64,000 nt of DNA. It comes from Opitutales bacterium (GTDB lineage: Bacteria; Verrucomicrobiota; Verrucomicrobiia; Opitutales; JABSRG01). The stretch is from NCBI GenBank assembly GCA_051117635.1, contig JBNPEH010000021.1:21673-85672 (forward strand), given 5' to 3'. A program made the translations under genes and the position numbers. Every line of letters starts with the position of its first letter. Within the stretch, counting starts at the first letter, position 1. Below, piece after piece: positions 2 to 15,763 of this stretch. A model generated the notes under the pieces. It was not told the DNA's origin. It ran no database searches and saw only the letters and a program-made list of their open reading frames with translations.

Positions 2-349
2 GTGCACAGCTACACGACCCGGCCGCTGGAAGCCTGCCGGTTCGAGAGTCATCGCGCGACGGTCGACATCCAGGTGGTTCTGCAGGGCGCTGAATGGATC
101 GACTGGCACCCAGCCGACGAACTGACCCCGGAGGGAGCCTGGGATGCCGAGCGCGATTTTCAGTTTCATCAACCCCCGGCGGTCCCTCCGCTGGGACGCC
201 TGCGGCTGGTTCCCGGGTTTGCCGCCATCTTTTTCCCCGAGGACGGGCATCGTCCACAGATAGCCGATGGCGACCCCGCTCCGTTGCTCAAAGCCGTGGT
301 CAAGATTCCGCACGCTCTCCTCACCACCCATCCGGATCCCAGCTCATGA
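2..349 (+). CDS. YhcH/YjgK/YiaL (DUF386, EbgC-like) family protein; 5' end off-window
   Basis: The ORF is open to the window edge. 'ESHRATVDIQVVLQGAE' and 'PGFAAIFFPEDGHRP...KAVVKI' match conserved segments of E. coli YhcH as I recall it. The stop overlaps the next start (ATGA 346-349). Confidence 0.6.
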   Translation: MHSYTTRPLEACRFESHRATVDIQVVLQGAEWIDWHPADELTPEGAWDAERDFQFHQPPAVPPLGRLRLVPGFAAIFFPEDGHRPQIADGDPAPLLKAVVKIPHALLTTHPDPSS

Positions 350-1742: not shown

Positions 1743-1747
1743 GCCCG

Positions 1748-2557
1748 ATGCCTGCCTTCTGGAAAAACACCTCGACCCTCGATCGTCTCGTTCCGGCGCT
1801 GCAGGAGACCGTGGACCCTGCCGAGGCCGAATGGGCCGTCCTCGGTAGCCGACCGATGCCCGACCTGGATGCCTTTCCCCGGCTGCAGGGCATCTTTAAG
1901 TGCGGCATCGGCACCGACAATGTGCCGTTTGAGGCGGCGGCCGAACGGGGCATCCGGGTCTGTCTGCCCGGCCCGGAAACCGCTGCCGTCATTCACCGGG
2001 AAACCGCCCACTTCGCGGTCAGCCTGATCCTGCGCATGCTCTACAGCCGGGTAGGAGACCTCGACCGGTGGGAAAAATCACCGCGTCCCGCCCTGACCGA
2101 GCGAACGGTCCTGGTGGTGGGCACCGGCAACATCGGCGGCCGGGTGGCCGCCGCGCTCAAGCCGTTTCTGCGGGTCCTGACCTATGACAGCGCGCACGAC
2201 GCACCGGCTGTACTCCGGGAAGCGCTGCCGCAGGCCGACGTCGTGTCGCTTCATGTGCCGCTGACCCGGGACACGCGTGGCCTGGTCGATCCGGCCTGGC
2301 TCACCTCCATGAAGGATGGCGCCGCGCTGGTGAACACAGCCCGGGGACCCCTGGTCGATGAACAGGCGCTCCTGGCCGAGCTGAAGAGCGGCCGTCTGTC
2401 CGCCGCCTTTGATGTCTTCTGGCAGGAACCCTACAACGGGCCGTTGCGTGCATTGCATCCCTTCCCTTTTTTCATGACACCCCACGTCGCCAGTACCTGC
2501 CAGGCCTTCCTCGACGGGCTGGCCCGTGACCTCAACCAGTGCCTGACCCATGCCTGA
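1748..2557 (+). CDS. D-isomer-specific 2-hydroxyacid dehydrogenase family protein
   Basis: ATG 1748 lies just after the upstream stop. 'VLVVGTGNIGGRVA' is a GxGxxG motif. 'LVNTARGPLVDEQAL', 'DVFWQEP' and 'MTPHVAS' follow the Arg/Glu/His catalytic pattern. Confidence 0.7.
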   Translation: MPAFWKNTSTLDRLVPALQETVDPAEAEWAVLGSRPMPDLDAFPRLQGIFKCGIGTDNVPFEAAAERGIRVCLPGPETAAVIHRETAHFAVSLILRMLYSRVGDLDRWEKSPRPALTERTVLVVGTGNIGGRVAAALKPFLRVLTYDSAHDAPAVLREALPQADVVSLHVPLTRDTRGLVDPAWLTSMKDGAALVNTARGPLVDEQALLAELKSGRLSAAFDVFWQEPYNGPLRALHPFPFFMTPHVASTCQAFLDGLARDLNQCLTHA

Positions 2558-3572
2558 TCCCGCAAAGGCCCGGGAGCCTCCCATTCGCTGCGGCATCATC
2601 GGCTACGGGAAAATGGGCCGGATCCGCGCCGAGGCCATCCGCGAATCCGGACGCGGCGTCGTCCAGGGGATCTACGATCCGGTGAATCCCGCCCCCGATG
2701 GCCTCCATGCCTATTCGGACGAAACCGCCCTGATCGAGGACCCGGCCATCGACGCCGTCTTTGTCTGCACGCCGAATTACCGGATTCCCGACCTCTGCAA
2801 ACAGGCGCTGTCAGCCGGCAAACATGTCTTCGCCGAAAAGCCGCCCGCCTTCAACGCCGCCCAGCTCGAGGAGGTCATCGCGGTCGAAAAACAGGCCGGC
2901 AAAGTCCTTATGTATGGCTTCAATCACCGGCACCACGCCAGTATCCAGAAGATGAAGCAGATCGTCGACAGCGGCGAGCTGGGGAAGATCCTCTGGATGC
3001 GGGGTCGCTACGGCAAGGAGGTCGACGAGGCCTACTTCAAAGGCTGGCGCGCGGACCCCAAACTCGCCGGCGGGGGCATCCTCCTCGACCAGGGCATCCA
3101 CATGCTCGACCTGTTCCTCTACTTCGCCGGGCCCTTCGACGAAATTCATGCCCTCGTCTCCAACCTCTTCTGGAAAACTCCCGGCCTCGAAGACAATGTC
3201 TTCGCCATCATGAAAAACAGCCAGTCCGGTGTCTGCGCCTCCCTCCACTCCACCATGACCCAGTGGCGCTATCTGTTCTCACTCGAAGTGTTTCTCGAAA
3301 AGGGCGCGCTGGTGCTGAATGGTCTGAAAACCTCATCCGGTGCTTACGGCGACGAAGACCTCGCCATCAAACGCAATACCCGAAACCCCGAACAGGGCCA
3401 GTTCGATCAGGAGGAGCATCTGGTCTATAAGACTAATATTTCCTGGGGTTCAGAGGTTGAGTTGTTTTTTGATTCATTAGCCGCCAATAAAGTTCCATTA
3501 TTGGGCTCATCAGCATGTGCGCTCAACCTAATGAATACGATAGATAAAATCTATGATACAGGACAGGATTGA
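2550..3572 (+). CDS. Gfo/Idh/MocA-family NAD(P)-dependent oxidoreductase
   Basis: ATG 2550 overlaps the upstream stop. Contains the Rossmann motif 'IRCGIIGYGKMGR' and the 'HVFAEKP' EKP motif. The last ~150 nt already lie in AT-rich sequence. Confidence 0.75.
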   Translation: MPDPAKAREPPIRCGIIGYGKMGRIRAEAIRESGRGVVQGIYDPVNPAPDGLHAYSDETALIEDPAIDAVFVCTPNYRIPDLCKQALSAGKHVFAEKPPAFNAAQLEEVIAVEKQAGKVLMYGFNHRHHASIQKMKQIVDSGELGKILWMRGRYGKEVDEAYFKGWRADPKLAGGGILLDQGIHMLDLFLYFAGPFDEIHALVSNLFWKTPGLEDNVFAIMKNSQSGVCASLHSTMTQWRYLFSLEVFLEKGALVLNGLKTSSGAYGDEDLAIKRNTRNPEQGQFDQEEHLVYKTNISWGSEVELFFDSLAANKVPLLGSSACALNLMNTIDKIYDTGQD

Positions 3573-4290
3573 AGCAAAATTAGACTTTTTGAAAAGTATT
3601 CCATCTTGGCTTGCACTAAAAAATAAGCATATCGGGAAACGCGGTTTTGTCATTGGCAATGGCCCAAGCTTGAATGCGGGCCAATTGGATTTGCTAAAGG
3701 ACGAAATAACCATTGCATCTAACAAAATCTACTTGGTTTTCAATGAAACTGAATGGAGGCCGAAGTATTACACAATATCAGATAATTTAGTCTGGCAAAA
3801 AGTTGGCAATATTGTTGGTTCCTATTTTGATAAAGTTTATACTTCAAACAGTAATCGAGGTAACCCGGAAGGTGTAAAAAAAGTCGTATGGAGAAACAGG
3901 GGTAAGGTTTTAGAACCTCGCAATGGTTTTTTTTCTAGGTCGCCGATTTTAGGCTTATTCGGTGGTTCAACTGTAACTTTTGACAACATGCAGTTAGCAG
4001 TTTTTATGGGTTTGAATCCTATTTACCTTATCGGGTGTGATCATTTTTACGATGAAGCTAAAAACGCTGAAGAACTAAAGCCAATACGGCATGAAAATAA
4101 ATCCAACCATTTTCATAAGGATTATCGAAAGCCCGGAGAATTAGTTAATCCTGCACCTATAGCCCAAATGGATCTGGCTTACGGTGCAGCCGCAGATTTT
4201 GCGACTAAAAACAAATGGATGATAAAAAATCTAACTCCGGGCGGTTTTTTGGAAGCCTTCCCCAGGGATTCATTAGAAACTATACTCTAG
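3553..4290 (+). CDS. DUF115/MptE-like putative glycosyltransferase (Maf / sialyltransferase-like GNGPSL motif)
   Basis: 'GFVIGNGPSLN', 'IASN' and 'IYLIGCDHFY' resemble the nucleotide-sugar-binding core of DUF115 Maf proteins and GT42 Cst-II ('AGNGPSL'). The call is from motif memory only. Confidence 0.5.
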   Translation: MIQDRIEAKLDFLKSIPSWLALKNKHIGKRGFVIGNGPSLNAGQLDLLKDEITIASNKIYLVFNETEWRPKYYTISDNLVWQKVGNIVGSYFDKVYTSNSNRGNPEGVKKVVWRNRGKVLEPRNGFFSRSPILGLFGGSTVTFDNMQLAVFMGLNPIYLIGCDHFYDEAKNAEELKPIRHENKSNHFHKDYRKPGELVNPAPIAQMDLAYGAAADFATKNKWMIKNLTPGGFLEAFPRDSLETIL

Positions 4291-4297
4291 CCTCTTA

Positions 4298-5251
4298 ATG
4301 CCTGTAACTCTATCGATAGTAATCAATAATTACAATTATGCCCATTTCCTTGGTCAAGCAATTGAAAGTGCCATTGCTCTAGAATGGTCGCCCAAGGAGG
4401 TGATTGTTGTGGACGATGGGTCAACTGATAATTCTAAAAATGTTATTTTAAATTTTAGAGATAAGATAAAATATGCATTTAAAGAAAATGGTGGTCAAGC
4501 ATCCGCCTTTAACAAAGGTTTTGAATTGGCAACCGGTGATTATGTTTGGTTTTTGGATGCTGATGACTACATAAGGCCAGATTCAGTCAGGCATTTAATC
4601 AAAGCACTCTCTTCATCACCTGAAATTTGTCATTTTAATTTTTCTACTATACGGTCTGACGGGTCGTTAATTAAAAATAAAGCTGCTAATAAATTTCCAT
4701 CTAACTACGTTGATGAGAAATGCATTTCCTCCACATTAAAATCGTGGTATCCGCCTACATCAGCAAATGTCTTTAAGATGAAATTGTTACAAAAAATATT
4801 TCCAATACCAAATGTTTGGAGGATAAGTGCAGATACTTTTCTTATTCTAAATTCAAGAATGGAGGGCGAGTATTGCTTTTATAACGAGGCGATTGTCGCT
4901 TATCGAATTCATGAGCAAAATAATTTTAACTTACTAGTACAAAAACCAGACAAGCAACGCCTATCAAATATTGGTTGGACTATGTATCGTAAGTACATTC
5001 TGACTGAAAATTTGTTCTATAAAAATACTAAGAAGCGCCCACCTCATCCCTTGATGAGTCCGGGTGAATTGTTTAACATGCTTTATCTGCCAAAATTAAA
5101 TAAAGATTCACCGATTACTTGTTTAGAAATAATGTTTCTAATGCTTAGATTTGATAAAAAGGAAATTTTCTCAAACTGGAAGGTGATTTTAAAGTTCGCT
5201 TTGTTACTTTTCCTTCCACTTAAATTTGTAAAAAAAGTTAAATCAAAATGA
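4298..5251 (+). CDS. family-2 glycosyltransferase
   Basis: 'LSIVINNYNYAHFLGQAIESA', 'VIVVDDGSTDNS' and the DxD motif 'WFLDADDY' are present. Confidence 0.8.
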   Translation: MPVTLSIVINNYNYAHFLGQAIESAIALEWSPKEVIVVDDGSTDNSKNVILNFRDKIKYAFKENGGQASAFNKGFELATGDYVWFLDADDYIRPDSVRHLIKALSSSPEICHFNFSTIRSDGSLIKNKAANKFPSNYVDEKCISSTLKSWYPPTSANVFKMKLLQKIFPIPNVWRISADTFLILNSRMEGEYCFYNEAIVAYRIHEQNNFNLLVQKPDKQRLSNIGWTMYRKYILTENLFYKNTKKRPPHPLMSPGELFNMLYLPKLNKDSPITCLEIMFLMLRFDKKEIFSNWKVILKFALLLFLPLKFVKKVKSK

Positions 5252-6111
5252 ATATTGTTCTTACATCTAACCGGGCTTTCTTAGTAAGAACATTTGCAAC
5301 AATTTTTTCTATTGAAAAATTTAGTTCTGTTAAAAACAAATACTTTATTTTAATTGAAGAAAATAATAAGAATCTATCTAATAGGATAAGTCAATTTTCT
5401 GAAATGTACGGATTTGACATTTGCTATATTGAAATAGACAGGCAGCTTTTTAACGGATTGCCAATTAATTCTAGAATTAGTAGTGAGACATACTTTAGAT
5501 TAGCGATTCCCACAATATTTAAAGGTCGCTATTCTGAACTGGTTTATGTCGACTCTGATTTTCTTTTTTTAGATGATATAGAACGTTTAATACCCAAAAC
5601 CAAAATGGAAAAATTCCTGTCTGCAGTCCCTGATCCATTAATTTGTAGAGGAGGACATAAAGAGAATTGGAGAGACACTTCATATTTTAATGCCGGACTA
5701 TTAGTATTTAATTTAAATCAGAATCATAATTTGATTCAATATGCCCAAGAAAACATTAGATTTATTCTAAGTAAAGAAGATCCTTACCTTTTTGATCAAG
5801 ATATCTTAAACTACTACTTAAATGGAGATTTCATCCAAATGCCCTACAAATGGAATATGCAAACAAAGTTCTTTAAACGAATTAATCTAGCTAAAAAGAA
5901 AGGGCTAACTAGTGAAGATTTTTTAAAACCAGCTGCTATTCATTTTTCCGGAAATTTAAAACCTTGGATTCGCGGAGTTTATCATCCATATAAAGATATT
6001 TATCTAAGCCATCTATCTGAACTAATCGATGATGCCGATTGCGTTAAAAAAGCACCCCTCAGGGTGATCAGTTTTAAAATTGCCCAATTTCTTTCAATCT
6101 TTGAAAAATAA
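5248..6111 (+). CDS. family-8 glycosyltransferase (RfaJ/LgtC-like)
   Basis: ATGA overlap with the upstream gene. DxD motif in 'VYVDSDFLFLDD'; C-terminal 'IHFSGNLKPW' is typical of GT8. Confidence 0.75.
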   Translation: MNIVLTSNRAFLVRTFATIFSIEKFSSVKNKYFILIEENNKNLSNRISQFSEMYGFDICYIEIDRQLFNGLPINSRISSETYFRLAIPTIFKGRYSELVYVDSDFLFLDDIERLIPKTKMEKFLSAVPDPLICRGGHKENWRDTSYFNAGLLVFNLNQNHNLIQYAQENIRFILSKEDPYLFDQDILNYYLNGDFIQMPYKWNMQTKFFKRINLAKKKGLTSEDFLKPAAIHFSGNLKPWIRGVYHPYKDIYLSHLSELIDDADCVKKAPLRVISFKIAQFLSIFEK

Positions 6112-6113
6112 CA

Positions 6114-7439
6114 ATGGAATTCAGAATTGCCAGATGTGTTTTTTATAGTGTTTTCTTTGTCATTCTTTTTTTGCCTCTGCGGGGAGACCTTTTATTTTCT
6201 ATCGTCGGCTGTGTGTTTCTGCTAGATATAGCTATAATTTATTTGGGAAAACGTAGTCAATTGAATCCGATTTCCTTTTTTCAACTGGGATTTATTTTTA
6301 TATTATGCATGGAGGGTATTTTTAGCTATAAAATAATAAGTGGTATTGTTGGCGAAGATAATGTTGATTTCGCTGTTCAGTTGCTAAGTCAAGGAGGAGC
6401 TCTCTTAATTTTAGGTTATTTGGTTTGTGAGAAGGAAGTTGGTAGGCATGGGATGCTGTTTTTGAAAAATCCCGCCCACGGCAAAAATTTAGTAATTTTA
6501 TTTTATATAATTTGTATATACCAATTCCTTCCGATGGCGTATTTTACTATTCGGTTTGGCAGGCATTATGGCTATGGGAATGAATTCGCAGCGATAAATA
6601 TATTACCATCCTTTCTAGTCTTTCCCCTTTTTATTATTTCAATTCTTGCCCCGTCCCTTATATGTATTTATTTTAAAGCAATCGGTTGTAGGAATTGGAC
6701 AAGAAAAAGCTTGATTTACGCTGCCCCTTTACTTCTTTTAATTATTTTAGGGGGAAGAAGATATATGATTTTATATGCCTTTCTTCCCGTTATTTTTATT
6801 TGTTTTGGTGGCCAAGATCTCCAACTTAAAAAAATTATCCGACTATCAGTTGTAGGCCTTTTAATTTTAGCCAGCGCGGTGTCGACTTATTATTTAAGAT
6901 GGGGAATCGATAATCTTTCCGTGGACCTTCTCCAAGAGCGAGTTTTTGATGTATCTACTACTTTTAATGAGAATGCAGTTCGAAGAATGGCTTTAGCGAC
7001 AGATTATTATCGTTTTGAAAGTCATGAACCTTTCCATAACACCGCATATATTTTCACTTTTTTCATCCCTCGAGTTTTTTGGCAAGATAAACCAATAAAA
7101 ATGGAGATTTGGTTTCCTCAAGTATACGAAAGGGAACGTCGCAGATCATCATATTCTGCGAGTATGAGCTTTATGGCCCCATTCTATGGGGATTTTGGTT
7201 ACGGGCTATCCCTAGTTTTTGCTTGCCTGTTGGGGGTATTTATTTCCTTTATTCGAAATCTATTAACAAGCCGCCTCTTACAAATGGGACAATTTACGGA
7301 TGCTATTAATGGTGTATTGGCAGCGGGATTGTTTTTTTTGCCAAGGCAACTTGGAACAGCTTGGGCCCAGACAATTGGATTTTTAATCATTATAATTGCT
7401 ATAAGATTTTTCTTCTTCTCAAGGTATGAAAAAGTTTAA
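6114..7439 (+). CDS. polytopic membrane protein, putative O-antigen/EPS polymerase (Wzy-like)
   Basis: 441 aa with roughly ten or more hydrophobic segments and no soluble domain. It is embedded between glycosyltransferase genes. The function is inferred from context. Confidence 0.5.
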   Translation: MEFRIARCVFYSVFFVILFLPLRGDLLFSIVGCVFLLDIAIIYLGKRSQLNPISFFQLGFIFILCMEGIFSYKIISGIVGEDNVDFAVQLLSQGGALLILGYLVCEKEVGRHGMLFLKNPAHGKNLVILFYIICIYQFLPMAYFTIRFGRHYGYGNEFAAINILPSFLVFPLFIISILAPSLICIYFKAIGCRNWTRKSLIYAAPLLLLIILGGRRYMILYAFLPVIFICFGGQDLQLKKIIRLSVVGLLILASAVSTYYLRWGIDNLSVDLLQERVFDVSTTFNENAVRRMALATDYYRFESHEPFHNTAYIFTFFIPRVFWQDKPIKMEIWFPQVYERERRRSSYSASMSFMAPFYGDFGYGLSLVFACLLGVFISFIRNLLTSRLLQMGQFTDAINGVLAAGLFFLPRQLGTAWAQTIGFLIIIIAIRFFFFSRYEKV

Positions 7440-8280
7440 TTTGTTTATAATTGGGGCCCAAAAGACAGGTTCTTCGTATTTACATTTCTTGCTTTTAAAT
7501 CAAAATGAAATAAGTGGTCCAAGAGAGGAGATTGATAGTTTTGATCTTCCTAATGGAAAGCTGAATTTTCCTCTCCAAAACACTCCATATAGGTTGTGTA
7601 AACGAGCAAATTTGTTGGCAAATCTTGACGCCGCAAATAGGATTCATAAGTATAACAAGGATGCTAAAATCCTAGTAGTCCTACGAAACCCTGTTAGTAG
7701 GTTAGAATCTTCGATTCGTCATTATATGAGACTAGGACTTCTGGAGTTTAAACCCTTAGATTTTTATGGCGCGAAAATTTTAAACGATAATTGGTCTGAA
7801 TTAAATAAACCGTTGCAACTTGCTGTCCAATTCTCGCTTTATGGGAAGTATCTTTTAGAATGGATCAAGATCTTTGGCTGTCAGCAAGTTTTAATTATAA
7901 AAGAAAATGAAATAAAATCAAAAGAGTGTTTAAAGCATATGTTAGAAGGATTTCTTTGCTTGAAATCTCCCCTAGTTTTTAAGAATATAAGCAATGCGTA
8001 TAGCAAAACAATACCAAATAATTATAATCTTTACAAGTTAAGTAATCGTTCGGCGAAATTTTTTTGGAAAAGACAAGGCGAATGCAAAATTAAAAGAAGG
8101 AGGCCTATTTTCTTAAGCCGCACAGTAAATTATGTGCTCTTAAGAACTTTCATCTTTTGTTTTAGAGCGGAAGATGTGAAAGGCAAAAAATTGTTGGCCT
8201 TTTCCCCGGAATTTAGAAGTAGTCTGTTTGTAATCTTTAAAGAAGATCAAAGACTATTATCTACCTTAGTGAAATCTTGA
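7426..8280 (+). CDS. PAPS-type sulfotransferase family protein
   Basis: 'FIIGAQKTGSSYL' resembles the 5'-phosphosulfate-binding loop and 'VVLRNPVSRLESS' the 3'-phosphate-binding motif. Confidence 0.6.
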   Translation: MKKFNLFIIGAQKTGSSYLHFLLLNQNEISGPREEIDSFDLPNGKLNFPLQNTPYRLCKRANLLANLDAANRIHKYNKDAKILVVLRNPVSRLESSIRHYMRLGLLEFKPLDFYGAKILNDNWSELNKPLQLAVQFSLYGKYLLEWIKIFGCQQVLIIKENEIKSKECLKHMLEGFLCLKSPLVFKNISNAYSKTIPNNYNLYKLSNRSAKFFWKRQGECKIKRRRPIFLSRTVNYVLLRTFIFCFRAEDVKGKKLLAFSPEFRSSLFVIFKEDQRLLSTLVKS

Positions 8281-9428
8281 AAATTATAATTTACTGGGAA
8301 TATTTCCAACGCTACCACAATGCGCGTTTGTCAGCGTTGATTCGTCTGGCTGAGAAGCAGGGTCATTTAGTTCTCCCGGTTTCCCTTTCAGAAAAAGGCC
8401 ACCATGGCCATCGAACCGAGCGCGATCCGTTTGTTGACTCCAGAGCCATTCATCTTGCAGGCAAACAAGCATCGCGGCCTATCAATGATCCCGTCATCGT
8501 TGATCAGTTCGTTGACCTTTTAGAAAAAGAAAGGCCCGATGTTGTTTCCATTGTGGGTTGGTATGGGCGCGGTACTTATCGAATTTTAAAATGGGCAAAA
8601 AAAAATTCTAAAAAGATTATTTTATTGCTGGCCGGAAGCCAACATGACAAACGGCGTAATCCACTGAAAGAGGCCTACAAGCGCTATTTTATTTTGTCCA
8701 AGGTTGATGCTGTTCTTTGCGGAGGTAAACCGCATGTCCGATATGCCTCCCGTTTGGGAATGAACAAGTCCTCAATTTTCACCGGTTACAATGCTGTGGA
8801 CAACGACTTCTGGGCTTCAGCGGGCGAAGAGTCCCGAATGCGGTCCAGGGAACTCGCCGATAAGCTGGGCTTTCGCCCGAAACAATTCTTTGTTACGGCT
8901 GGGCGGTTTATCCCCAAGAAAAATTTTGAAGCCCTTATTGAGCAATATTCTTATTACCGTGCTCAATTTTGTGCTGAGCCATGGGATTTAGTAATCGTGG
9001 GCGACGGTGAGTTACGCCCACGGTTGGAATTTAAAATCACTCAGCTTGGCCTGAACAATCACGTACACCTCCCAGGCTACCTTTCGAGTGAAGAATTGGC
9101 CCCTTATTTTGGACTGGCCGGCGCTTTCGTTCTACCAAGTTCTGGTTTTGAACAATGGGGATTGGTCGTAAATGAGGCGATGGCAGCCGGTTTGCCGGTC
9201 ATCGTGAGTACCGTGTGTGGGTGTTGTGAGGATCTTGTTGTTGATGGGGAAACCGGCTTCAGCTTTTCGCCTGAAAGGATGGATGACCTGGCTCTCGCAA
9301 TGGAAAAGATTTCAGGTGATGAAGCAATGCGGGATAAAATGGCTTCTCTGGCTGCGAAACATATTCAAGGTTATTCTTCTGACGTCTTTGCTACCAACTT
9401 CCTCAAAGCCTGCAAACATTGTAAGTAA
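8277..9428 (+). CDS. GT4 (GT-B fold) glycosyltransferase
   Basis: TTG start overlaps the upstream TGA. EX7E region 'GFEQWGLVVNEAMAAGLPVIVS...GETGF' is present. Confidence 0.8.
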   Translation: MKIIIYWEYFQRYHNARLSALIRLAEKQGHLVLPVSLSEKGHHGHRTERDPFVDSRAIHLAGKQASRPINDPVIVDQFVDLLEKERPDVVSIVGWYGRGTYRILKWAKKNSKKIILLLAGSQHDKRRNPLKEAYKRYFILSKVDAVLCGGKPHVRYASRLGMNKSSIFTGYNAVDNDFWASAGEESRMRSRELADKLGFRPKQFFVTAGRFIPKKNFEALIEQYSYYRAQFCAEPWDLVIVGDGELRPRLEFKITQLGLNNHVHLPGYLSSEELAPYFGLAGAFVLPSSGFEQWGLVVNEAMAAGLPVIVSTVCGCCEDLVVDGETGFSFSPERMDDLALAMEKISGDEAMRDKMASLAAKHIQGYSSDVFATNFLKACKHCK

Positions 9429-9443
9429 TTATTATAAAGGTTC

Positions 9444-10520
9444 ATGGCGACGTTAACCATTCATGCAACCAACGTGACAGGACTTGGAGCAAGCCAGGTC
9501 GTCGTTTCCTTTCTGGAGGCATTGGACAAAGCTAACACTACCTTCTCCGAAATTTTGTGCTACGTTCCGGAATCCGGACCGGTGGCGGAGTTCAAACCTG
9601 GTTCTGATTTTTTCCATGTTTTCCCCTACAAACGTCTCGGTCCCAAAGCAATCAGCCGTGCACTGGAATGCCTTTTCCCCGGATTATTTTTTAAATCATC
9701 CGATCTGTTAATTGTGTTGGGGGACGTGCCCTTGCGGGTCAGAACTCAGCAAATCGTGCTTGTCCACCAGCCCCATTTGCATAGTCCGCGTGTTAATCCC
9801 TGGGTTGGACGGTCTCTGACCTATCGCTTGATGCGTGGGTTGACGCGTCTCAATGCGAAGTTTGCCAGTCAGGTTATCGCGCAGACCAATGCGATGGCTG
9901 AAGGCCTGAAAGAATCCTATGAAAATTGGCGCCAACGAGATTGTTTGACTGTGATTGGTCAGCCGCCTCCCTCGTGGTTCCGAACCGATGGGCGTCAGGA
10001 GCGGTTGATCGGGGATGCGGACGGACTTCGGCTTTTCTACCCGGCAGCGGATTACCCACACAAAAACCATCAAATTTTCGAAGGGTTGCTTAGGTTGGAC
10101 GTGTCTGGGCTTGTTGAACGGATCACCTTGACTGTACCCGACGGGCGAATTGCTCATTCAAGTAAATGGCTGTATTGTGTCGGCCGCCTCAATCATGAAC
10201 AGTGTCTTGAGGCTTATCAATCGGCGGATGCTCTAGTCTTCCCATCTGTTCTAGAAAGTTATGGTTTACCCTTGGTCGAAGCCATGGTGATGGGTCTGCC
10301 AATACTGGCATCCGATCTGCCCTATGCGAGGGCACTTTGTGGTGGCGTCGCTATATACTTTGATCCCAAATCGCCGGAAAATTTGCTGGCTGCCTGTACC
10401 GAATTGAAACAGCGGCTTGGTGATGGCTGGAAACCGGATTGGTCAGCACAGCTCCAAAAAATGCCTCCGAATTGGTCAGAAGTCGTGAGTGCTTTCTTGC
10501 GCCTGGCTGACAGCAAATAG
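9444..10520 (+). CDS. GT4 (GT-B fold) glycosyltransferase
   Basis: 'FPSVLESYGLPLVEAMVMGLPILASD' is the EX7E-type C-terminal motif. Confidence 0.7.
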   Translation: MATLTIHATNVTGLGASQVVVSFLEALDKANTTFSEILCYVPESGPVAEFKPGSDFFHVFPYKRLGPKAISRALECLFPGLFFKSSDLLIVLGDVPLRVRTQQIVLVHQPHLHSPRVNPWVGRSLTYRLMRGLTRLNAKFASQVIAQTNAMAEGLKESYENWRQRDCLTVIGQPPPSWFRTDGRQERLIGDADGLRLFYPAADYPHKNHQIFEGLLRLDVSGLVERITLTVPDGRIAHSSKWLYCVGRLNHEQCLEAYQSADALVFPSVLESYGLPLVEAMVMGLPILASDLPYARALCGGVAIYFDPKSPENLLAACTELKQRLGDGWKPDWSAQLQKMPPNWSEVVSAFLRLADSK

Positions 10521-10521
10521 C

Positions 10522-11355
10522 ATGCAAAATCCCATTATCATACTTGGGGCACCAAGAAGCGGGACCACCATCCTCGGTGAGATTTTATCTGCCCATCCCG
10601 ATCTGCATTACCTTGTTGAGCCGAATCCCTTGTGGCGTCGCTACGTAAGATCGCGTTGCGACTACTTTAATTTAGAACAAGAATGGGATGCAGTAGAACC
10701 TACCAAGGGCCTGTTCGAATCTGAAATGCGGAAATCATTGAAGATGAGGCTTCTGGAGAAGACACCGCAAAACTGTCTTAGAGTTCCATTTGTGGATGCA
10801 GTCTTTCCCGATGCAAAGTTTGTTCATATTTTGCGGGATGGCGTGGAGTCTTCTTTGTCAATTGCCAGGTATTGGCAAAAGCACACGCATGGGTTTCGGG
10901 GGGTTCGTCTGCGTCAACGTCTGAGGGAGGCTTCGCTGCAGCAACTGCCGCGATATGGGATCCAGGCATTCAAGCGATTGTTGCCTGCGGGCACGAAGCC
11001 ACGGGTATTCTGGGGACCTGTGTTGCCGGGAATGGGGCAAATGGTCGATTGCATGAGCATCACGGAGGTTGCCGCCATGCAATGGCGCATGTGCGTCGAG
11101 CAGGCAACCTTCCATGGACGAAAACTCCCTCCGAATCAGTATTTGGAACTGCGCATCGAGGAGTTCAACAAAGAGAAATTGAAGCAAGTCATCGAGTTTG
11201 TGGGCTTGTCGAGCGAATCATCTGTGTTTGAGGCAGCCGAGGAACGCTTCATCAGAGACCAGACAGCGCATCGAATTGCTGAAGCAGACGAGAAAGAGGT
11301 AGAGCTTGTAAAACGCTGGGTGCTGCCGACGATGAAGTGGCTTGGTCAGCTTTAA
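10522..11355 (+). CDS. sulfotransferase family protein
   Basis: ATG 10522 lies 2 nt after the upstream stop. 'IIILGAPRSGTTILGEIL' is a PSB-loop-like segment and 'HILRDGVESSLS' is 3'-PB-like. Confidence 0.65.
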   Translation: MQNPIIILGAPRSGTTILGEILSAHPDLHYLVEPNPLWRRYVRSRCDYFNLEQEWDAVEPTKGLFESEMRKSLKMRLLEKTPQNCLRVPFVDAVFPDAKFVHILRDGVESSLSIARYWQKHTHGFRGVRLRQRLREASLQQLPRYGIQAFKRLLPAGTKPRVFWGPVLPGMGQMVDCMSITEVAAMQWRMCVEQATFHGRKLPPNQYLELRIEEFNKEKLKQVIEFVGLSSESSVFEAAEERFIRDQTAHRIAEADEKEVELVKRWVLPTMKWLGQL

Positions 11356-11359
11356 TGCC

Positions 11360-13411
11360 ATGGATGATCTTTCAAAGTATTTACTGACTGTTCTTTCGGC
11401 TTTCCTGATCTCCCTCGGCATCACCCGCCTGATGATCTCTCTCGGCCCGAAGCTCGGGCTGATCGATCACCCGGACGCGCGCCGGATCCACCGGACCCCG
11501 ATTCCGCGCGCGGGTGGACTTGCGGTGTTTCTGGGTTTCCATTTGTCGGTCCTCGGCTTGTATTTCCTCTGGTGGCCCGACTTTCAGGGTCAGTTGGACT
11601 TTGGCTGGTGGGAAGGCTTTTTCCTGGCGTCGGTTTTGTTGCTGGTGGTCGGTCTGCTGGACGACGCCCGCGGCCTGCCGCCGCTGGTGAAACTGGCGGG
11701 TCAGGCAGCGGCGGCGCTGGCGCTCTTTTTGACGACCGGGAGCAGCTTTGCGACTTTGCTGGGCTTTCAGCTGCCGCTGGCTTTGGATCTGGTGCTGACC
11801 GTCGTCTGGTGTCTGGCGCTGATCAATGCCTTTAATTTGATCGACGGCATGGACGGGCTGTGTGCCGGCCTGGCGATTGTCTCGGGGCTGGGCATTGCGG
11901 CCGCCTTTGTGTTGCGGGGCGTGCCCGGCGACGGGATCGTGGTCCTGGCGCTGATCGGCGCTTGTCTGGGGTTTCTGCGTTATAACTTCCATCCGGCGCG
12001 TATTTTTCTGGGGGACACCGGCTCGATGTTCATCGGCTTTCTGATGGCGGCCATGGCGCTGGGCGCAGCGGGTAAATCGACGGTCCTGGTGGCGCTGGGC
12101 ATTCCCTTTCTGGCGGCAGGGGTACCGGTCATCGACACCGTGCTGGCGATCTGGCGTCGGACGATGCGCCGGCTGGTGCGCAAGTATGAGGGCTCGGATG
12201 ACGGCCCGAAGGTGACGGGCGCGGATCGCGATCACCTCCATCACCGCCTGCTGGCGTCCGGGCTCTCACAGCGTCGCGTGGCGCTGCTGCTCTATGCGGC
12301 CAATGCCCTGCTGGTCGTGGTGGCCCTGGTCTGGATTTCGATCAACCGGTCGACGGTCGGCCTCTTCCTGGCCCTCTTCCTCGGCGCGGCCTATGTGGTG
12401 ATCCGGCATATCGTGCACATCGAGGTGTGGGACACGGGTCGCGCGATGGTCCAGGGGCTGAAGCGTCCAAGCAAGGGCTCGGTGTTTGCACTGATGCTGC
12501 CCTTCTGGGATCTGGCCTGTCTGACGCTGGCATTCATGGCCGCGTTTGCGATGGAGGATCCCAACACGGCCAAGGCCTTGTCGCTTGCCGACTGGGTGAA
12601 CCTGTTCCCCTTCTGGGTGACGCCGGTCTTTCTGATGCTGGTCTTTTTCCGCGCCTATGTGCGCGTCTGGACCCGGTCCACCTTCATCGACTTTCTCTAT
12701 CTGGCCATCGCGCTGGGGACCGGCGGGGTGTTGGCCTTTGCGCTCAACGCCGCCTGGACAGCCAACCTGAGTTGGTCGCAGCTGCAGGTCGCGCTGGTGA
12801 TGCTGTTGCTGGCGGCGGCCGGCATCGGCGGCATCCGCAGCCTCCCCCAGCTGCTCCGCGAGTGGATGGTCATGACCGCGCAGGAGGACCGCACCGGCGG
12901 CCGCTACCGCGTCAAAAACCTGCTGCTCTATGGCGCGGGCGACCGCGGCTCGCTCTTCCTGCGTCAGCTCCGCTTTGTGCATCCCGACGAGATGGCGACT
13001 CGGCGTGTGGTCGGCTTTATCGACGACAACCGGAACCTGCGGCGGCGCTACTCCTACGGCGTCCAGGTGCTCGGCACCTTTGCCGAGCTGCCGCGGATCC
13101 TCAACGAACACGCAATCGACGAGGTGATCGTCACCGCCGCCCTCCCCGAGGCGCGGCTGCGCGAACTGCGCGCCGCCGCCGAGGCCGCTGAGGTCGCGGT
13201 CTATACCTGGCAGGGCCGGACACAGCCGCTGGCCCAGATCCGCAAAGCCGCGTCACCCCAGACGCTGTTCCCGGATACCGAGCAGAAAGGCGCCGCCCCA
13301 GGCCAGGACCCCGGCCAGCAGCACGCTGGGACTGAACAGCACAAAGTCGACGAGCGCGTGGACCAGCCAGCCCGCCAGCGTGACCCCGCCGACGGCGAGC
13401 AGCCAGCCTGA
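11360..13411 (+). CDS. WecA/MraY-family polyprenyl-phosphate sugar-1-phosphate transferase fused to four extra TM helices and a CapD/PglF-type linker domain
   Basis: ATG 11360; the track start at 11342 is a TTG. WecA motifs 'NAFNLIDGMDGL' and 'FLGDTGSMFIGF' are present. The C-terminal 'NLLLYGAGDRGSLFLRQL...VVGFIDDNRNLRRR..VQVLG...IDEVIVT' resembles the N-terminal linker domain of WbpM/PglF/CapD. The last ~53 codons run antisense to the next gene. Confidence 0.75.
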   Translation: MDDLSKYLLTVLSAFLISLGITRLMISLGPKLGLIDHPDARRIHRTPIPRAGGLAVFLGFHLSVLGLYFLWWPDFQGQLDFGWWEGFFLASVLLLVVGLLDDARGLPPLVKLAGQAAAALALFLTTGSSFATLLGFQLPLALDLVLTVVWCLALINAFNLIDGMDGLCAGLAIVSGLGIAAAFVLRGVPGDGIVVLALIGACLGFLRYNFHPARIFLGDTGSMFIGFLMAAMALGAAGKSTVLVALGIPFLAAGVPVIDTVLAIWRRTMRRLVRKYEGSDDGPKVTGADRDHLHHRLLASGLSQRRVALLLYAANALLVVVALVWISINRSTVGLFLALFLGAAYVVIRHIVHIEVWDTGRAMVQGLKRPSKGSVFALMLPFWDLACLTLAFMAAFAMEDPNTAKALSLADWVNLFPFWVTPVFLMLVFFRAYVRVWTRSTFIDFLYLAIALGTGGVLAFALNAAWTANLSWSQLQVALVMLLLAAAGIGGIRSLPQLLREWMVMTAQEDRTGGRYRVKNLLLYGAGDRGSLFLRQLRFVHPDEMATRRVVGFIDDNRNLRRRYSYGVQVLGTFAELPRILNEHAIDEVIVTAALPEARLRELRAAAEAAEVAVYTWQGRTQPLAQIRKAASPQTLFPDTEQKGAAPGQDPGQQHAGTEQHKVDERVDQPARQRDPADGEQPA

Positions 13412-14965
13412 GGTCCGCCGCGCCCAGACCAGCCAGCCGAGGAGCGAGCCCAGCAGCAATAGTGCTCCCGGACGCCCAACCTCGATTGGGATCTGCAGCC
13501 AGTCGTTGTGAGCGTAGTCGGCGCGCCTGAACCGGTATTGCTTTTTTTTATGGTTATACCACCAGCTATACCAGATTTCCGGATATTGCCTTTGGTATAC
13601 AGGGAAAAGATAACGCCATCCTCCTGCACCGACACCGTAAGCGGGGGAATCGGACAAATAATCAAGGCTGGCCATATAAAGATACTTTCGTGTCCCAACA
13701 GAACCTCCAAAAGAATACTCTTCTTTTGATTGCACTTGAGACACTTGGTCTCGAATCAGCTGAATCGACTGCTTGGGGCGGTCTAATGCACCATCTTTAA
13801 AAATTAAAAGACCCCAACAAATGACCAAACCAATGAGAGGAAACATAATAATTGCCCATTTAGGAGATAATTCTACAGAGAAAAATTTTTCTGCAGCTAG
13901 CTTTAGTAAGGAAGAAAAAGTTAAAACGAAAGCAAGAGCAAAACCGATAGCGATGCCTCCCACTGAGGTTGAGTAAGCAATAGATGCAAGAAGGCAAAAC
14001 CCACACAAAACCAAAAAAGGAATGGGCGTGGAACCGGATGGGTAACTTTGAGCTTTCCTCCAGTAATGAAGGATCAAGAGCCAGGTGATCCCCAGATTCA
14101 AATATAGGAAGGCAGCCGTGTGATTTGGATAATTGAAGGTTCCATAGAATTCCCTGTTGCTGGGCCTGAATACGCCAAGAATACGTTTTGATTCATTTGC
14201 TTCCTGCACGATGCCGAACAGCGCCATGGCGGTGGCGGAGAGCACGGCGATCCAGAGCAGGTAGACGATGGGGCGTCGGGACCGGCAGCCGGCGACGAGC
14301 CCCATGACGGCCAGCCAGGTGAGGGACCAGTGCAGGAGCGCGCGCCAGGCATTCATCTCCGCGAAGGGTGCGGCGATGCTGGTCGGCAGCCATTTGATGT
14401 GGTCGATTTTGACCAACCACCATTGCGTGCCCTCGGTCCGGTATTCCCAGGCCGGGTTGAGCGCCTGGATCAGGATGTAGAGGAGGAAGGCCCCGCCCAG
14501 CCAGAACGGGGGGAAGCGACGCAGCCGACGCCAGCCGTCGGCACAGTCGTAGCGCCAGCGCGCGTCGCCTAGCGGCAGCCAGGCCAATGAAAAGGTCAGG
14601 GCAGCGAGGCTCCAGAGCAGCCAGAGTGACCAGACGCGCATCCCGCCGAGGCTCCAGCCGCTCGCGATCACCAGCAGGCTAGCCGCGGTCAGGACCGCCC
14701 ACTGACGGCGTCCCAGCGGCGCGCGCTGCGCCGGCTCGCCAAAGCGTCGACGCGACCGCAGGCGCTTGAAGCGCGGATCCGCCTGAGTGTCCGACGTCGT
14801 ATCGGCGGAGCGCCGTCGCCGGTGCGCGCTGCGGTTGGGTGCCGGTTCCCGGGATGCCACGCAGGGAGGATCAGGCAACGGCGCCACGAGCGCAACGCGG
14901 TTTGAGGGGATTCGGTAACCGCGAAGCCGCGAAGGCGGGGAAGGGAGGCGCCAAGGACGGGACAC
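13253..14965 (-). CDS. O-antigen ligase / Wzy_C-family membrane protein
   Basis: Multi-TM protein with 'YAHNDWLQIPIEVG' (Wzy_C-like). The N-terminus is uncertain because the GTG start at 14965 lies inside repeat copy A. An alternative GTG at 14860 lies just outside the repeat. Confidence 0.7.
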   Translation of the reverse strand: MSRPWRLPSPPSRLRGYRIPSNRVALVAPLPDPPCVASREPAPNRSAHRRRRSADTTSDTQADPRFKRLRSRRRFGEPAQRAPLGRRQWAVLTAASLLVIASGWSLGGMRVWSLWLLWSLAALTFSLAWLPLGDARWRYDCADGWRRLRRFPPFWLGGAFLLYILIQALNPAWEYRTEGTQWWLVKIDHIKWLPTSIAAPFAEMNAWRALLHWSLTWLAVMGLVAGCRSRRPIVYLLWIAVLSATAMALFGIVQEANESKRILGVFRPSNREFYGTFNYPNHTAAFLYLNLGITWLLILHYWRKAQSYPSGSTPIPFLVLCGFCLLASIAYSTSVGGIAIGFALAFVLTFSSLLKLAAEKFFSVELSPKWAIIMFPLIGLVICWGLLIFKDGALDRPKQSIQLIRDQVSQVQSKEEYSFGGSVGTRKYLYMASLDYLSDSPAYGVGAGGWRYLFPVYQRQYPEIWYSWWYNHKKKQYRFRRADYAHNDWLQIPIEVGRPGALLLLGSLLGWLVWARRTSGWLLAVGGVTLAGWLVHALVDFVLFSPSVLLAGVLAWGGAFLLGIREQRLG

Positions 14966-15350: not shown

Positions 15351-15405
15351 AGCCAGTGGTGGCGGTGCCGTGCCGCTGCGGCGCTGTGCGAACGCCCAGA
15401 GCGAT

Positions 15406-15699: not shown

Positions 15700-15763
15700 C
15701 GGCCTTATCTTCAACAATTGCGCGGAGTTCCGTCAACGCCCGGGGGGAATACACCAACCGCCA
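15659..15763 (-). pseudogene. DUF4160-family remnant (C-terminal ~34 codons only)
   Basis: 'SPRALTELRAIVEDKADDIRAHWDRHF' resembles the C-terminal helix pair of DUF4160 proteins, the usual partner of DUF2442. The upstream part of the ORF is repeat-derived sequence. Confidence 0.35.

Follow-up and report, generated by a model that had tools for sequence, protein, structure and literature searches.

The locus analysed here raises the question of how a block of AT-rich genes came to lie in the middle of a high-GC glycan operon, and whether this block was inherited together with its flanks or brought in from elsewhere. It is located in a stretch of 64,000 nucleotides (the window, to which all positions refer) from an uncultured Opitutales bacterium with 65% GC. 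Binary segmentation of positions 1-20000, using a Bernoulli likelihood, placed change points at 3418, 8306 and 11412 (log-likelihood gains of 289, 91 and 306, respectively), which separate a left flank (1-3417, GC 0.647) and a right flank (11412-20000, GC 0.651) from two inner layers:

3418..8305, + strand, island layer 1 (GC 0.344; GC1/GC2/GC3 0.40/0.33/0.30)
8306..11411, + strand, island layer 2 (GC 0.496; GC1/GC2/GC3 0.57/0.41/0.51)

In a GC profile of sliding 300-nt windows, with those outside 3000-15000 taken as background (mean 0.648, sd 0.043), layers 1 and 2 are 7.1 and 3.6 sd below the background mean, respectively. The left break corresponds to codon 290 of a 340-codon Gfo/Idh/MocA gene, whose final ~150 nt are AT-rich, and the right break is ~50 nt inside a WecA-like gene, counted from its ATG at 11360. 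An earlier note on this DNA had placed a GC drop at ~3420 in the end of the Gfo/Idh/MocA gene, two layers with borders at ~8300 and 11400, and a return to high GC ~40 nt into the WecA-like gene; the computed GC, GC3 and codon composition are discontinuous at these very places. Its hand counts (20%, 35%, 30-60% and 82%) are also realistic, since the computed 60-nt lines range from 0.18 to 0.48 in layer 1, from 0.30 to 0.68 in layer 2 and from 0.52 to 0.82 in the flanks.

The GC shift is seen at all three codon positions and in the amino-acid make-up. The flank genes have a GC3 of 0.77-0.82, compared with 0.24-0.35 for the five genes of layer 1 and 0.46-0.56 for the three of layer 2, and the ratio of amino acids with AT-rich codons to those with GC-rich codons (FYMINK/GARP) is 1.5-2.5 in layer 1 versus 0.3-0.9 in host genes. 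This argues that the encoded proteins have long evolved in genomes richer in AT. Layer 1 has a dinucleotide signature beyond the host range (delta* 180 versus a host maximum of 114), which together with the codon and amino-acid data upholds the foreign, low-GC origin that had been put forward for the block. Layer 2 is just at the edge of the host range (delta* 112), and the two layers differ from each other (delta* 147) by more than the maximum between adjacent host fragments (142).

Upstream of the left break, we identified a high-GC module composed of:

2..349, + strand, 3' part of a DUF386 (YhcH/YjgK/YiaL) gene (Pfam PF04074, 79.6 bits)
346..978, + strand, SIS_2 (GmhA-like) sugar-phosphate isomerase gene (Pfam; GC3 0.81)
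978..1742, + strand, inositol-monophosphatase/CysQ-family phosphatase gene (Pfam PF00459, 159 bits; GC3 0.79)
1691..2557, + strand, D-2-hydroxyacid dehydrogenase gene (Pfam; GC3 0.77)
2550..3572, + strand, Gfo/Idh/MocA oxidoreductase gene, the last conserved gene (Pfam)

The DUF386 gene is the first visible gene of the module, the locus continuing beyond the window start, and it precedes SIS_2 also in the related loci L161, L163, L165 and L166, whose syntenic SIS_2 proteins are 61-62% identical to that of the window. The phosphatase matches the IMPase, HisN and CysQ models of NCBIfam weakly and below threshold; it shares 49% identity with the product of the same-position gene of L166, and the D-2-hydroxyacid dehydrogenase is 55-58% identical to the syntenic proteins of relatives. 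The Gfo/Idh/MocA gene is a compositional chimera, high-GC up to codon 289 and AT-rich over codons 290-340 (3418-3572). Its product has hundreds of full-length homologues with 63-74% identity, several named Opitutales, Lentimonas or Coraliomargarita, and its C-terminal 50 residues diverge more than is usual in the family (ratio 0.82, with lower values in only 5 of 119 homologues), while residues 121-290 are normal (1.02-1.04) and the N-terminus is also lowish (0.89).

The break at 3418 is followed by eight genes and the right-border gene:

3553..4290, + strand, MptE-like (DUF115) putative glycosyltransferase gene (Pfam PF01973)
4298..5251, + strand, GT2 glycosyltransferase gene (Pfam PF00535, 110 bits; DDGSTD and DADD motifs)
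5248..6111, + strand, GT8 glycosyltransferase gene (Pfam PF01501)
6114..7439, + strand, gene of a Wzy-type oligosaccharide repeat-unit polymerase, a membrane protein of 441 aa (NCBIfam TIGR04370)
7426..8280, + strand, sulfotransferase 1 gene (Pfam PF13469, PF00685)
8277..9428, + strand, GT4 glycosyltransferase a gene (Pfam PF00534, 125 bits)
9444..10520, + strand, GT4 glycosyltransferase b gene (Pfam)
10522..11355, + strand, sulfotransferase 2 gene (Pfam PF13469, 82.8 bits; PRSGTT and RDG...S motifs)
11360..13411, + strand, WecA-like polyprenyl-phosphate HexNAc-1-P transferase gene (Pfam PF00953, 126 bits, and PF13727)

This gene content is the one that the earlier note had listed, and all island genes are on the + strand and, as it stated, coupled by an ATGA (5248-5251) and a TTGA overlap (8277-8280); the remaining junctions have gaps or overlaps of at most 20 nt. 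Catalytic and PAPS-binding motifs are intact (GAQKTGSS and RNPVSRLES were read in the translation of sulfotransferase 1), and NCBI gene calls concur, including the start of sulfotransferase 2 at ATG 10522 (277 aa, exact match to MGJ3243045.1) and of the WecA-like gene at ATG 11360 (683 aa). The polymerase scores 44.3 bits against TIGR04370 (cutoff 40) and has the same name at NCBI, with no match in Pfam. The GT8 gene has the lowest GC of the island genes (0.30; GC3 0.24). The GT2 protein is 30-36% identical to the same-position GT2 of L161 and L165, and the best local relatives of GT4 a are a Kiritimatiellia protein (L013, GC 0.56; 36%) and one from the L166 cassette (34%). In the WecA-like protein, the transferase domain is fused to a membrane and CoA_binding_3 region; its gene, high-GC from about codon 18 on, constitutes the right border of the island, and full-length relatives are present in 160 loci, mostly of PVC bacteria, with a best identity of 53%.

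Two further glycan genes are located downstream:

13253..14965, - strand, Wzy_C/O-antigen-ligase-like membrane protein gene (Pfam PF04932), convergent with the operon
16253..17509, + strand, high-GC GT4 glycosyltransferase gene (Pfam; GC3 0.85)

The latter is the last glycan gene and is followed by housekeeping genes (creatininase-family genes and the nuo operon). Inside the ligase-like gene, an interval scan detected a third AT-rich patch (13542-14201, GC 0.421, gain 78.6), overlooked in the earlier note. It covers residues ~255-475, most of the Wzy_C domain, and makes this gene a mosaic as well, with GC3 of 0.17-0.5 in the patch, between ends with GC3 of 0.8-0.97. Residues 301-455 diverge beyond the family norm (ratio 0.85; 6-7 of 80 homologues lower), with 1.04-1.09 in the high-GC parts. 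Protein divergence is thus raised where GC falls, in the Gfo C-terminus and in the ligase centre, the excess being modest in both.

Family membership suggests how such a locus could work. The upstream module (DUF386, SIS, IMPase-family, 2-hydroxyacid dehydrogenase and Gfo/Idh/MocA) would provide a special sugar precursor, and the WecA-like enzyme would begin the repeat unit on undecaprenyl phosphate. The five island transferases (MptE-like, GT2, GT8 and the two GT4) may then assemble this unit and two PAPS-dependent sulfotransferases decorate it, before the island Wzy polymerises the units and the adjacent Wzy_C protein ligates the polymer to an acceptor. The product would be a glycan of O-antigen, capsule or exopolysaccharide type. 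A Wzx flippase is not seen in the window, past whose start the locus runs.

Nothing typical of mobile elements was observed around the island, in line with the lack of flanking integrase, tRNA or IS element noted earlier: no tRNA was found in the window, no direct or inverted repeat was found bracketing the island, and every ORF of at least 100 aa with coding-like codon structure in 1-17.5 kb is, by ORF and Pfam scans, a glycan gene, so that integrase and IS genes are absent from this region.

We compared the window with seven related loci (L161/L162, L163/L164, L165, L166, L168 and L169 were examined), which retain the upstream module and the Gfo gene, then the MptE-like gene, and then carry differing cassettes. 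The module comprises DUF386, SIS, IMPase or SDR+DHQS+CMP-transferase, 2-hydroxyacid dehydrogenase and Gfo/Idh/MocA proteins, which in the loci with a complete module are 73-87% identical among themselves and 55-71% identical to those of the window. An MptE-family gene follows Gfo in L161, L163, L165, L166, L168 and L169 and opens the variable region here and in all related loci examined; the sets after it diverge in glycosyltransferases, polymerase and sulfotransferases. The cassette swap beside a conserved flank that had been suspected is therefore borne out on the left side. On the right, no synteny was observed in any fetched relative, the nearest WecA-like proteins being at most 53% identical.

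The boundary between conserved and variable genes thus lies at the Gfo-MptE junction, and the two neighbours are discordant. MptE-like proteins are just 30-53% identical across the related loci (30-51% for those with a complete module), and in relatives with a Gfo 70-71% identical to that of the window they are 33-49% identical, while in L167, on a 32%-GC contig, the MptE-like protein shares 51% identity with that of the window, as close as any, with a Gfo of 42%. In 12 contig pairs, Gfo is 63-91% and MptE-like 39-78% identical (Spearman 0.32). The first island gene was thus not co-inherited with the flank. The two island genes searched against a large protein collection, GT8 and MptE-like, have neither a donor nor a close homologue there: the best non-self match of GT8 is 30% identical among 5.8 billion proteins, and the MptE-like homologues plateau at 42-50% identity. 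Each island or flank protein that was looked up is the sole member of its 90% cluster, and no strain or species in the collections is related closely enough to reveal the ancestral state.

Taken together, 3418-11411 is likely the variable, structure-specifying part of a Wzy-dependent sulfated-glycan locus, imported and not inherited with its flanks, and import from two compositional backgrounds is the best reading. As to how many transfers there were, in which direction and by what mechanism, and as for the glycan chemistry above, we infer a scheme in which layer 1 (five genes and the last 51 Gfo codons) would come from a gene pool of ~30-35% GC, and layer 2 (three genes and the first ~17 WecA-like codons) from one of ~50% GC, comparable to those Opitutales relatives that have a mid GC and this type of locus; the composition of layer 1 is like that of the L167 cassette and that of layer 2 like those of the mid-GC relatives. 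The central domain of the ligase-like gene may have been swapped by a third import.

Alternatively, the AT-richness could have arisen in place, in an old cassette that no longer underwent recombination between conspecifics and hence GC-biased gene conversion, or in which low GC was selected, the breaks being the limits of homology between strains. The breaks do coincide with the end of conservation (Gfo 3' end, WecA 5' end, variable centre of the ligase), a smaller GC3 fall is also seen at the Gfo-MptE junction of L161, L165, L166 and L168, and it is acknowledged that the low GC generally seen in wzx, wzy and glycosyltransferase genes has no explanation (PMC3715488). Nevertheless, we consider this improbable. 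The cassettes of the relatives follow their own host composition (GC3 difference of -0.03 to 0.13, compared with 0.49 here) with no shared AT-rich value, and therefore AT-richness is not universal to these genes. In addition, the relationships of the MptE-like proteins are incongruent with those of Gfo, a 32%-GC lineage being about equally similar; a fall in GC3 from ~0.8 to 0.3 with amino-acid remodelling would take over one substitution per site, with the neighbours staying at 0.8; and a segment in transit would have GC3 out of step, whereas GC1, GC2 and GC3 of layer 2 fit the equilibrium of a genome with ~50% GC, so that it is not a half-ameliorated layer 1.

Within the preferred reading, import, the earlier note had counted at least two acquisitions. 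Two compositional sources are observed, but composition neither orders nor counts events, and two events look the same as one import of a mosaic. A single acquisition, of one ready-made cassette of low-GC and mid-GC parts or of a new layer 1 beside an older resident layer 2, is possible, if rather unlikely. It agrees with the eight genes forming one unbroken co-directional block with the inner break at a gene boundary (8277-8306), with the heterogeneity of layer 2 itself (GC3 0.27-0.73; delta* of 130 between its halves), and with polysaccharide cassettes elsewhere being mosaics built over time (PMC3715488).

The source being a 209.9-kb MAG contig (NCBI), known from assembled sequence alone, reads of a low-GC and a mid-GC organism could also have been joined into a high-GC contig by assembly or binning. 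This is very improbable: both outer joins are in frame within genes, alignments of Gfo with homologues span 95-99% of the protein, AT-rich tail included, homologues of the ligase-like protein align in a single stretch across both patch breaks, and gene order past the join is as synteny predicts (MptE-like, then GT2). Such a chimera needs at least three joins, each preserving frame, order, strand and start/stop overlaps.

In the case of import, the joins lie inside conserved bordering genes and in frame, and thus the set stays one co-directional, tightly packed operon. The earlier note had proposed homologous or illegitimate recombination; true homologous recombination is doubtful at such differing base composition, and illegitimate or microhomology-mediated joining, with subsequent selection for in-frame products, seems more likely.

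In capsule (cps) switching of Streptococcus pneumoniae, whole central cassettes are exchanged between conserved flanks, and in Klebsiella and other Enterobacterales those of the K-locus are reportedly swapped between conserved flanking genes, in both cases altering the surface polysaccharide. These exchanges are documented among sequenced strains and occur by homologous recombination in near-identical flanks, whereas here a single strain is known and flank similarity to any donor must have been low. Classical integrative genomic islands share the atypical base composition and the distinct dinucleotide signature, but are tRNA-linked, with integrase and direct repeats; the present block has no tRNA, integrase, IS or flanking repeat, and takes the place of the middle part of an operon, with the reading frames kept. 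The O-antigen cluster of Pseudomonas aeruginosa ends in wbpL, a WecA-family initiating transferase, which parallels the WecA-like gene at the right border here.

Segmented low GC in polysaccharide loci has been read as transfer from different sources in Salmonella (PMC3715488) and Burkholderia (PMC5462993). The O-antigen (rfb) clusters located between galF and gnd in Salmonella enterica and E. coli are, like the present locus, Wzy-dependent, with sugar-precursor genes at one end that vary with lineage and segments of differing GC, read as different sources or times (PMC3715488). Serogroup specificity resides in their central genes (glycosyltransferases, wzx and wzy), whose GC is the lowest of the cluster, as it is for the middle of the present locus, and recombination ends within bordering pathway genes, rml in Salmonella and Gfo here (PMC3715488). 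In contrast, the host here is a 65%-GC Verrucomicrobiota MAG, the module is different and uncharacterised, sulfotransferases are present and wzx is absent from the window. "Serotype-determining", as the earlier note called the island, would apply by analogy. In P. aeruginosa and in Burkholderia cenocepacia and B. multivorans (hybrid locus, PMC5462993), high-GC genomes (66-67%) carry a sharply lower-GC O-antigen block in a conserved locus devoid of integrase, read, as here, as horizontal replacement by recombination. There, the drop is ~11 points (56% versus 67%) and related donor sequences are known (PMC5462993), while the present locus has two levels and no donor found. A low-GC middle is thus a pattern long known from O-antigen loci, and what is unusual here is its size alone: ~30 points (GC3 0.79 to 0.30), compared with ~15-23 in Salmonella (PMC3715488).

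The glycan locus contains a compositional island made of two AT-rich layers. In 300-nt sliding windows, GC is ~0.60-0.70 up to ~3300, 0.24-0.40 at 3450-8250 and 0.44-0.56 at 8250-11400, after which it is 0.61-0.70; likelihood-based binary segmentation of positions 1-20000 placed change points at 3418, 8306 and 11412, with segment GC, in order, of 0.647, 0.344, 0.496 and 0.651. With 300-nt windows of the remainder of the window as reference (mean 0.648, sd 0.043), the deficit is 7.1 sd for layer 1 and 3.6 sd for layer 2. Flank genes have a GC3 of 0.77-0.82, against 0.24-0.35 for layer 1 and 0.46-0.56 for layer 2; in this 65%-GC genome, the fall from 0.79 to 0.30 takes only a few bases. The left break cuts the Gfo/Idh/MocA gene (Gfo, 340 codons) at codon 290, where '...cagttcgatcaggaggagcatc' gives way to 'tggtctataagactaatatttcc...', and the right break lies ~50 nt inside the WecA-like gene, counting from the ATG at 11360, which is also the NCBI start. 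An earlier note had placed the island here from hand-counted 60-nt lines; the sliding profile and the change points confirm its location, and the hand counts proved sound, since computed 60-nt lines range over 0.18-0.48 in layer 1, 0.30-0.68 in layer 2 and 0.52-0.82 in the flanks.

The island and its surroundings comprise the following genes:

2-3572, + strand: high-GC upstream genes, namely DUF386 (partial), SIS_2, IMPase-family, D-2-hydroxyacid dehydrogenase and Gfo/Idh/MocA (the conserved module)
3418-8305, + strand: layer 1, with MptE-like/DUF115, GT2, GT8, 441-aa membrane protein and sulfotransferase (ST1, 7426-8280)
8306-11411, + strand: layer 2, with GT4, GT4 and sulfotransferase (ST2, 10522-11355)
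11360-13411, + strand: high-GC WecA-like transferase fused to a membrane and CoA_binding_3 region
13253-14965, - strand: Wzy_C/O-antigen-ligase-like gene, convergent
16253-17509, + strand: further GT4, end of the locus

Creatininase-family genes and then the nuo operon are located downstream of the locus. Every gene in 2-13411 is on the + strand, and the junctions are tight (ATGA at 5248-5251, TTGA at 8277-8280, remaining gaps or overlaps of at most 20 nt), so that the co-direction and the start/stop overlaps described in the earlier note are indeed kept. The same note had seen no integrase, tRNA or IS element, and our searches agree: we found no integrase, transposase or IS among the window ORFs examined, no tRNA in the window and no repeats bracketing the island in a repeat search. 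An integrative genomic island or mobile element was thus rejected, since its defining features (integrase/transposase, tRNA target, flanking direct repeats) were tested for and not found. Rfam gave no match in the window, and no convincing internal terminators were found; a promoter scan returned 24 sigma-70-like matches against 11.5 expected and is uninformative, because AT-rich DNA inflates such matches. Some 160 nt at the 3' end of the WecA-like gene (13253-13411) also belong to the convergent ligase-like ORF.

Several features of a Wzx/Wzy-dependent cluster were identified. An initiating transferase is present in 11342-13411 (PF00953 Glycos_transf_4, 126 bits), co-oriented glycosyltransferases are represented by the MptE-like, GT2, GT8 and two GT4 genes, plus the GT4 at 16253-17509, and a Wzy repeat-unit polymerase is represented by the 441-aa protein, which has no Pfam match but passes the NCBIfam model TIGR04370 (oligosaccharide repeat unit polymerase) over aa 43-430, with 44.3 bits against a cutoff of 40. 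No Polysacc_synt/MATE-like protein that could be a Wzx flippase was found among the scanned window ORFs, the locus being cut by the window start; related loci carry unannotated genes of 484-494 aa upstream of the module. Catalytic DxD-type motifs are legible in the translations. The sulfotransferases match PF13469 and PF00685, and motifs read in the translations of ST1 (GAQKTGSS, RNPVSRLES) and ST2 (PRSGTT, RDGVESS) correspond to the 5'-PSB and 3'-PB motifs, from which a PAPS-dependent activity is predicted for both. The IMPase-family gene (978-1742) is weakly similar to models of CysQ (PAP phosphatase), every match being below the curated cutoffs; a CysQ-type function would be in keeping with PAPS-dependent sulfotransferases in the locus. 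A sulfatase gene is present at 39819-41252, 28 kb downstream. The cassette as a whole probably specifies a sulfated surface glycan, as predicted from its genes.

The window's own proteins are recorded at NCBI as MGJ3243039-48, from a MAG. All island and flank proteins looked up are singletons at 90% clustering, and therefore a close strain is absent from the collections searched. Genome-wide and metagenome-wide scans with the WecA-like protein returned at least 160 loci, mostly from PVC bacteria (Verrucomicrobiota, Kiritimatiellia and Lentisphaerota for the most part), in which the fusion, with its long C-terminal membrane region, is full-length; this membrane/CoA_binding_3 region resembles the N-terminal part of WbpM/CapD-type proteins. 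Among the matches listed, no WecA-like relative exceeds 53% identity, none has flank synteny and the module is absent. The informative relatives were reached through Gfo and MptE-like homologues and then their contigs. Full-length homologues of the Gfo protein number in the hundreds, at 63-74% identity, and several are named Opitutales, Lentimonas or Coraliomargarita.

In the contigs L161/L162, L163/L164, L165 and L166, the module consists of DUF386, SIS_2, a variable step (SDR + DHQ-synthase-like + CMP-transferase or IMPase-family gene), 2-hydroxyacid dehydrogenase and Gfo, and the MptE-like gene directly follows Gfo; past it, the relatives differ, with sets of GT2, GT4, polymerase-like, acetyltransferase, sulfotransferase or HAD genes. 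The gene order of L166 is exactly that of the window. Two short contigs (L168, L169) likewise lead from Gfo to MptE-like and a different cassette, and in the 32%-GC contig L167 the module is present but rearranged. The left flank is followed by different cassettes in 7 loci (module and Gfo; at least Gfo on the two short contigs), which bears out, for the left side, the earlier proposal of a cassette swap beside a conserved flank. On the right, no WecA-like gene was found within 10 kb downstream of Gfo in L161, L163, L165 or L166, and a 693-aa protein of L161, considered as a WecA-like right flank, was rejected for lack of similarity.

Across these loci the module proteins are 55-87% identical, versus 30-53% for the MptE-like proteins. 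SIS, 2-hydroxyacid dehydrogenase and Gfo share 73-87% identity among L161, L163, L165 and L166 and 55-71% with the window, and the MptE-like proteins of the same four contigs are only 30-51% identical. In 12 presumed pairs, formed where a Gfo and an MptE-like match came from contigs of equal length, Gfo is 63-91% identical versus 39-78% for MptE-like (Spearman 0.32), and two contigs with 91% identical Gfo have MptE-like proteins of only 51%. Judged from these high module and low MptE-like identities, and from the differing cassettes, the Gfo-MptE junction is the conserved-to-variable boundary of the whole locus family, and the island starts exactly there.

The module (CMP-transferase-family, DUF386, SIS_2, IMPase-family or SDR + DHQ-synthase-like, 2-hydroxyacid dehydrogenase, Gfo/Idh/MocA) is widespread on Opitutales-type contigs (L161, L163, L165, L166 and, rearranged, L167), and an MptE-like gene always follows it. 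It probably makes a CMP-activated sugar, which the putative MptE-like enzyme would transfer; the pathway appears to be uncharacterised. L163 (ERZ25068762 ctg152342) has a second MptE-like and GT2 pair upstream of the module, and three DDE_Tnp_1 transposase genes (1577-2317, 17495-18586, 19993-20993) amid its variable part, so that IS-mediated cassette change also occurs in the locus family, the window itself being without IS.

Several lines of evidence point to import of the AT-rich DNA. The shift is seen in GC1 and GC2 as well as in GC3, and in amino-acid use: the ratio of AT-rich-codon to GC-rich-codon amino acids (FYMINK/GARP) is 1.5-2.5 in layer 1, 0.7-1.0 in layer 2, 0.3-0.9 in host genes and 1.9 in the last 51 Gfo residues. 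In dinucleotide signature, layer 1 is at a distance of 180 from the host, layer 2 is at 112 from it, and the two layers are 147 apart; for host fragments of equal sizes, means are 54-68 and maxima 114-142. GC, codon positions, amino-acid use and dinucleotide signature thus all deviate as in horizontally acquired DNA, which upholds the foreign origin from lower-GC backgrounds put forward in the earlier note. Phylogenetic incongruence was also found, in identity matrices for one island gene (MptE-like against Gfo, SIS and 2-hydroxyacid dehydrogenase). The MptE-like protein of L167 is 51% identical to that of the window, as close as any relative, and its Gfo only 42%, from which it follows that MptE-like alleles have moved between deep lineages, low-GC ones included. 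A close donor was not found among 5.8 billion proteins for the two island genes searched, the best homologues being 30% (GT8) and 50% (MptE-like) identical.

The two layers more likely derive from two compositional source backgrounds, as had also been suspected beforehand. In layer 1, GC1/GC2/GC3 are 0.40/0.33/0.30, resembling the cassette of L167 (0.36/0.30/0.23), and in layer 2 they are 0.57/0.41/0.51, on the equilibrium expected of a ~50% GC genome; the cassettes of mid-GC relatives resemble layer 2 (0.51-0.55/0.38-0.40/0.45-0.56). The equilibrium was computed with Muto-Osawa regression coefficients, reportedly those of Lawrence and Ochman from 1997, which reproduced the host genes here. 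Half-ameliorated DNA of the layer-1 type should show GC3 ahead of GC1 and GC2. With all three codon positions of layer 2 on the 50% equilibrium, the idea that it is a partly ameliorated older layer is disfavoured, and two source backgrounds are likelier than a single source sampled at different ages. If a cassette that was mosaic beforehand arrived in one event, or if layer 2 was resident and layer 1 alone is recent, the import reading would be refined rather than replaced; we consider this less likely than not.

Decay of the composition in place, for example by escape from GC-biased gene conversion, would account for the breaks coinciding with the ends of conserved sequence. We consider it unlikely, given the movement of MptE-like alleles between deep lineages, including the low-GC one represented by L167, the position of layer 2 on the ~50% GC equilibrium at GC1, GC2 and GC3, and the cassettes of the relatives, which are near the composition of their own hosts: the GC3 difference between module and cassette is -0.03 to 0.13 in relatives versus 0.49 for layer 1 of the window, and AT-richness is therefore not built into these genes. 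In its most specific form, which seems to us decidedly improbable, the cassette would be a long-resident allele that lost GC in place without a homologous recombination partner in the population, escaping GC-biased gene conversion, and the intragenic breaks would lie where homology between strains ends. If this were true, the locus would offer an exceptionally clean natural experiment on the forces that maintain high GC in bacterial genomes, and on the reason for the AT-richness of variable polysaccharide genes in many bacteria.

Returning to import, the Gfo protein aligns to homologues over 95-99% of its length, AT-rich tail included. Its residues 121-290 are typical for the family (ratio 1.02-1.04) and residues 291-340 show excess divergence (ratio 0.82, with only 5 of 119 homologues lower), which fits, without proving, a join near codon 290. 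No donor-like allele of the C-terminal 50 aa was found, homologues being at most 50% identical there. Given how far apart they were in composition, the donor and recipient copies must have had low nucleotide identity, and we infer that illegitimate or microhomology-mediated joining, with selection for in-frame products, is a likelier mechanism than ordinary homologous recombination. We give very little probability to an assembly chimera, as it would need at least three joins that kept frame, strand, expected gene order and start/stop overlaps.

A third AT-rich patch was identified at 13542-14201, inside the ligase-like gene on the - strand (GC 0.421, log-likelihood gain 78.6), with GC3 of 0.17-0.5 versus 0.8-0.97 on either side. 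It encodes residues ~255-475, most of the Wzy_C domain, and the gene is an intact compositional mosaic whose homologues (29-40% identity) align as a single stretch over both breaks. Residues 301-455 diverge more than is usual in the family (ratio 0.85, with 6-7 of 80 lower), and the high-GC parts have ratios at or above the norm (1.04-1.09). The segment-wise ranking of homologues is uncorrelated (Spearman -0.13 to 0.07), a weak result since all matches are 26-50% identical. It seems that the part of the enzyme facing the substrate was replaced within the gene, and the replaced centre would plausibly match the new repeat unit.

Between the ligase-like and GT4 genes we noticed a repeated intergenic element (14864-15091 and 15839-16000, with an inverted partial copy at 15283-15363). 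Two copies share a 57-nt stretch at 100% identity, and identity over an 82-nt stretch is 89%. In each copy there are two GC-rich terminator-like hairpins; the element may be REP/MITE-like or consist of duplicated terminators. Segment 20471-21100, between a creatininase-family gene and the nuo operon, has GC of 0.483 (log-likelihood gain 36), and the minus-strand ORFs 20324-20980 and 20191-20571 have no Pfam match. A short AT-rich segment at 49491-49760 (GC 0.415) precedes a TonB_C-domain gene (49682-50143) and reaches into it; it probably represents intergenic or promoter DNA.

In the classical picture of O-antigen loci, an exchangeable low-GC cassette is placed between a conserved precursor module and conserved processing genes. 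The window locus leaves the current understanding of how such loci evolve unchanged and extends this picture to an uncultured marine-type Verrucomicrobiota lineage (Opitutales), with an unusually large amplitude and cleanly separated levels. It belongs to a widespread locus family whose fixed boundary at the Gfo-MptE junction could anchor the cataloguing of glycan diversity in metagenomes, and the probable sulfated surface glycan is relevant to interactions with phages and grazers and to the marine cycling of sulfated polysaccharides.

Salmonella O-antigen clusters are composed of segments that differ in GC and are all lower than the genome, the glycosyltransferase, wzx and wzy genes being the lowest and the pathway genes intermediate; the segments were interpreted as acquisitions that differ in source or in date, with the recombination endpoints located inside the bordering rml genes (PMC3715488). 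In high-GC Burkholderia, a 56% block is found in a 67% genome (PMC5462993). The window locus shares the architecture and the logic of these loci, but differs from them in the host phylum, in an amplitude of ~30 GC points (GC3 from 0.79 to 0.30), and in its conserved module, two sulfotransferases and mosaic ligase-like gene.
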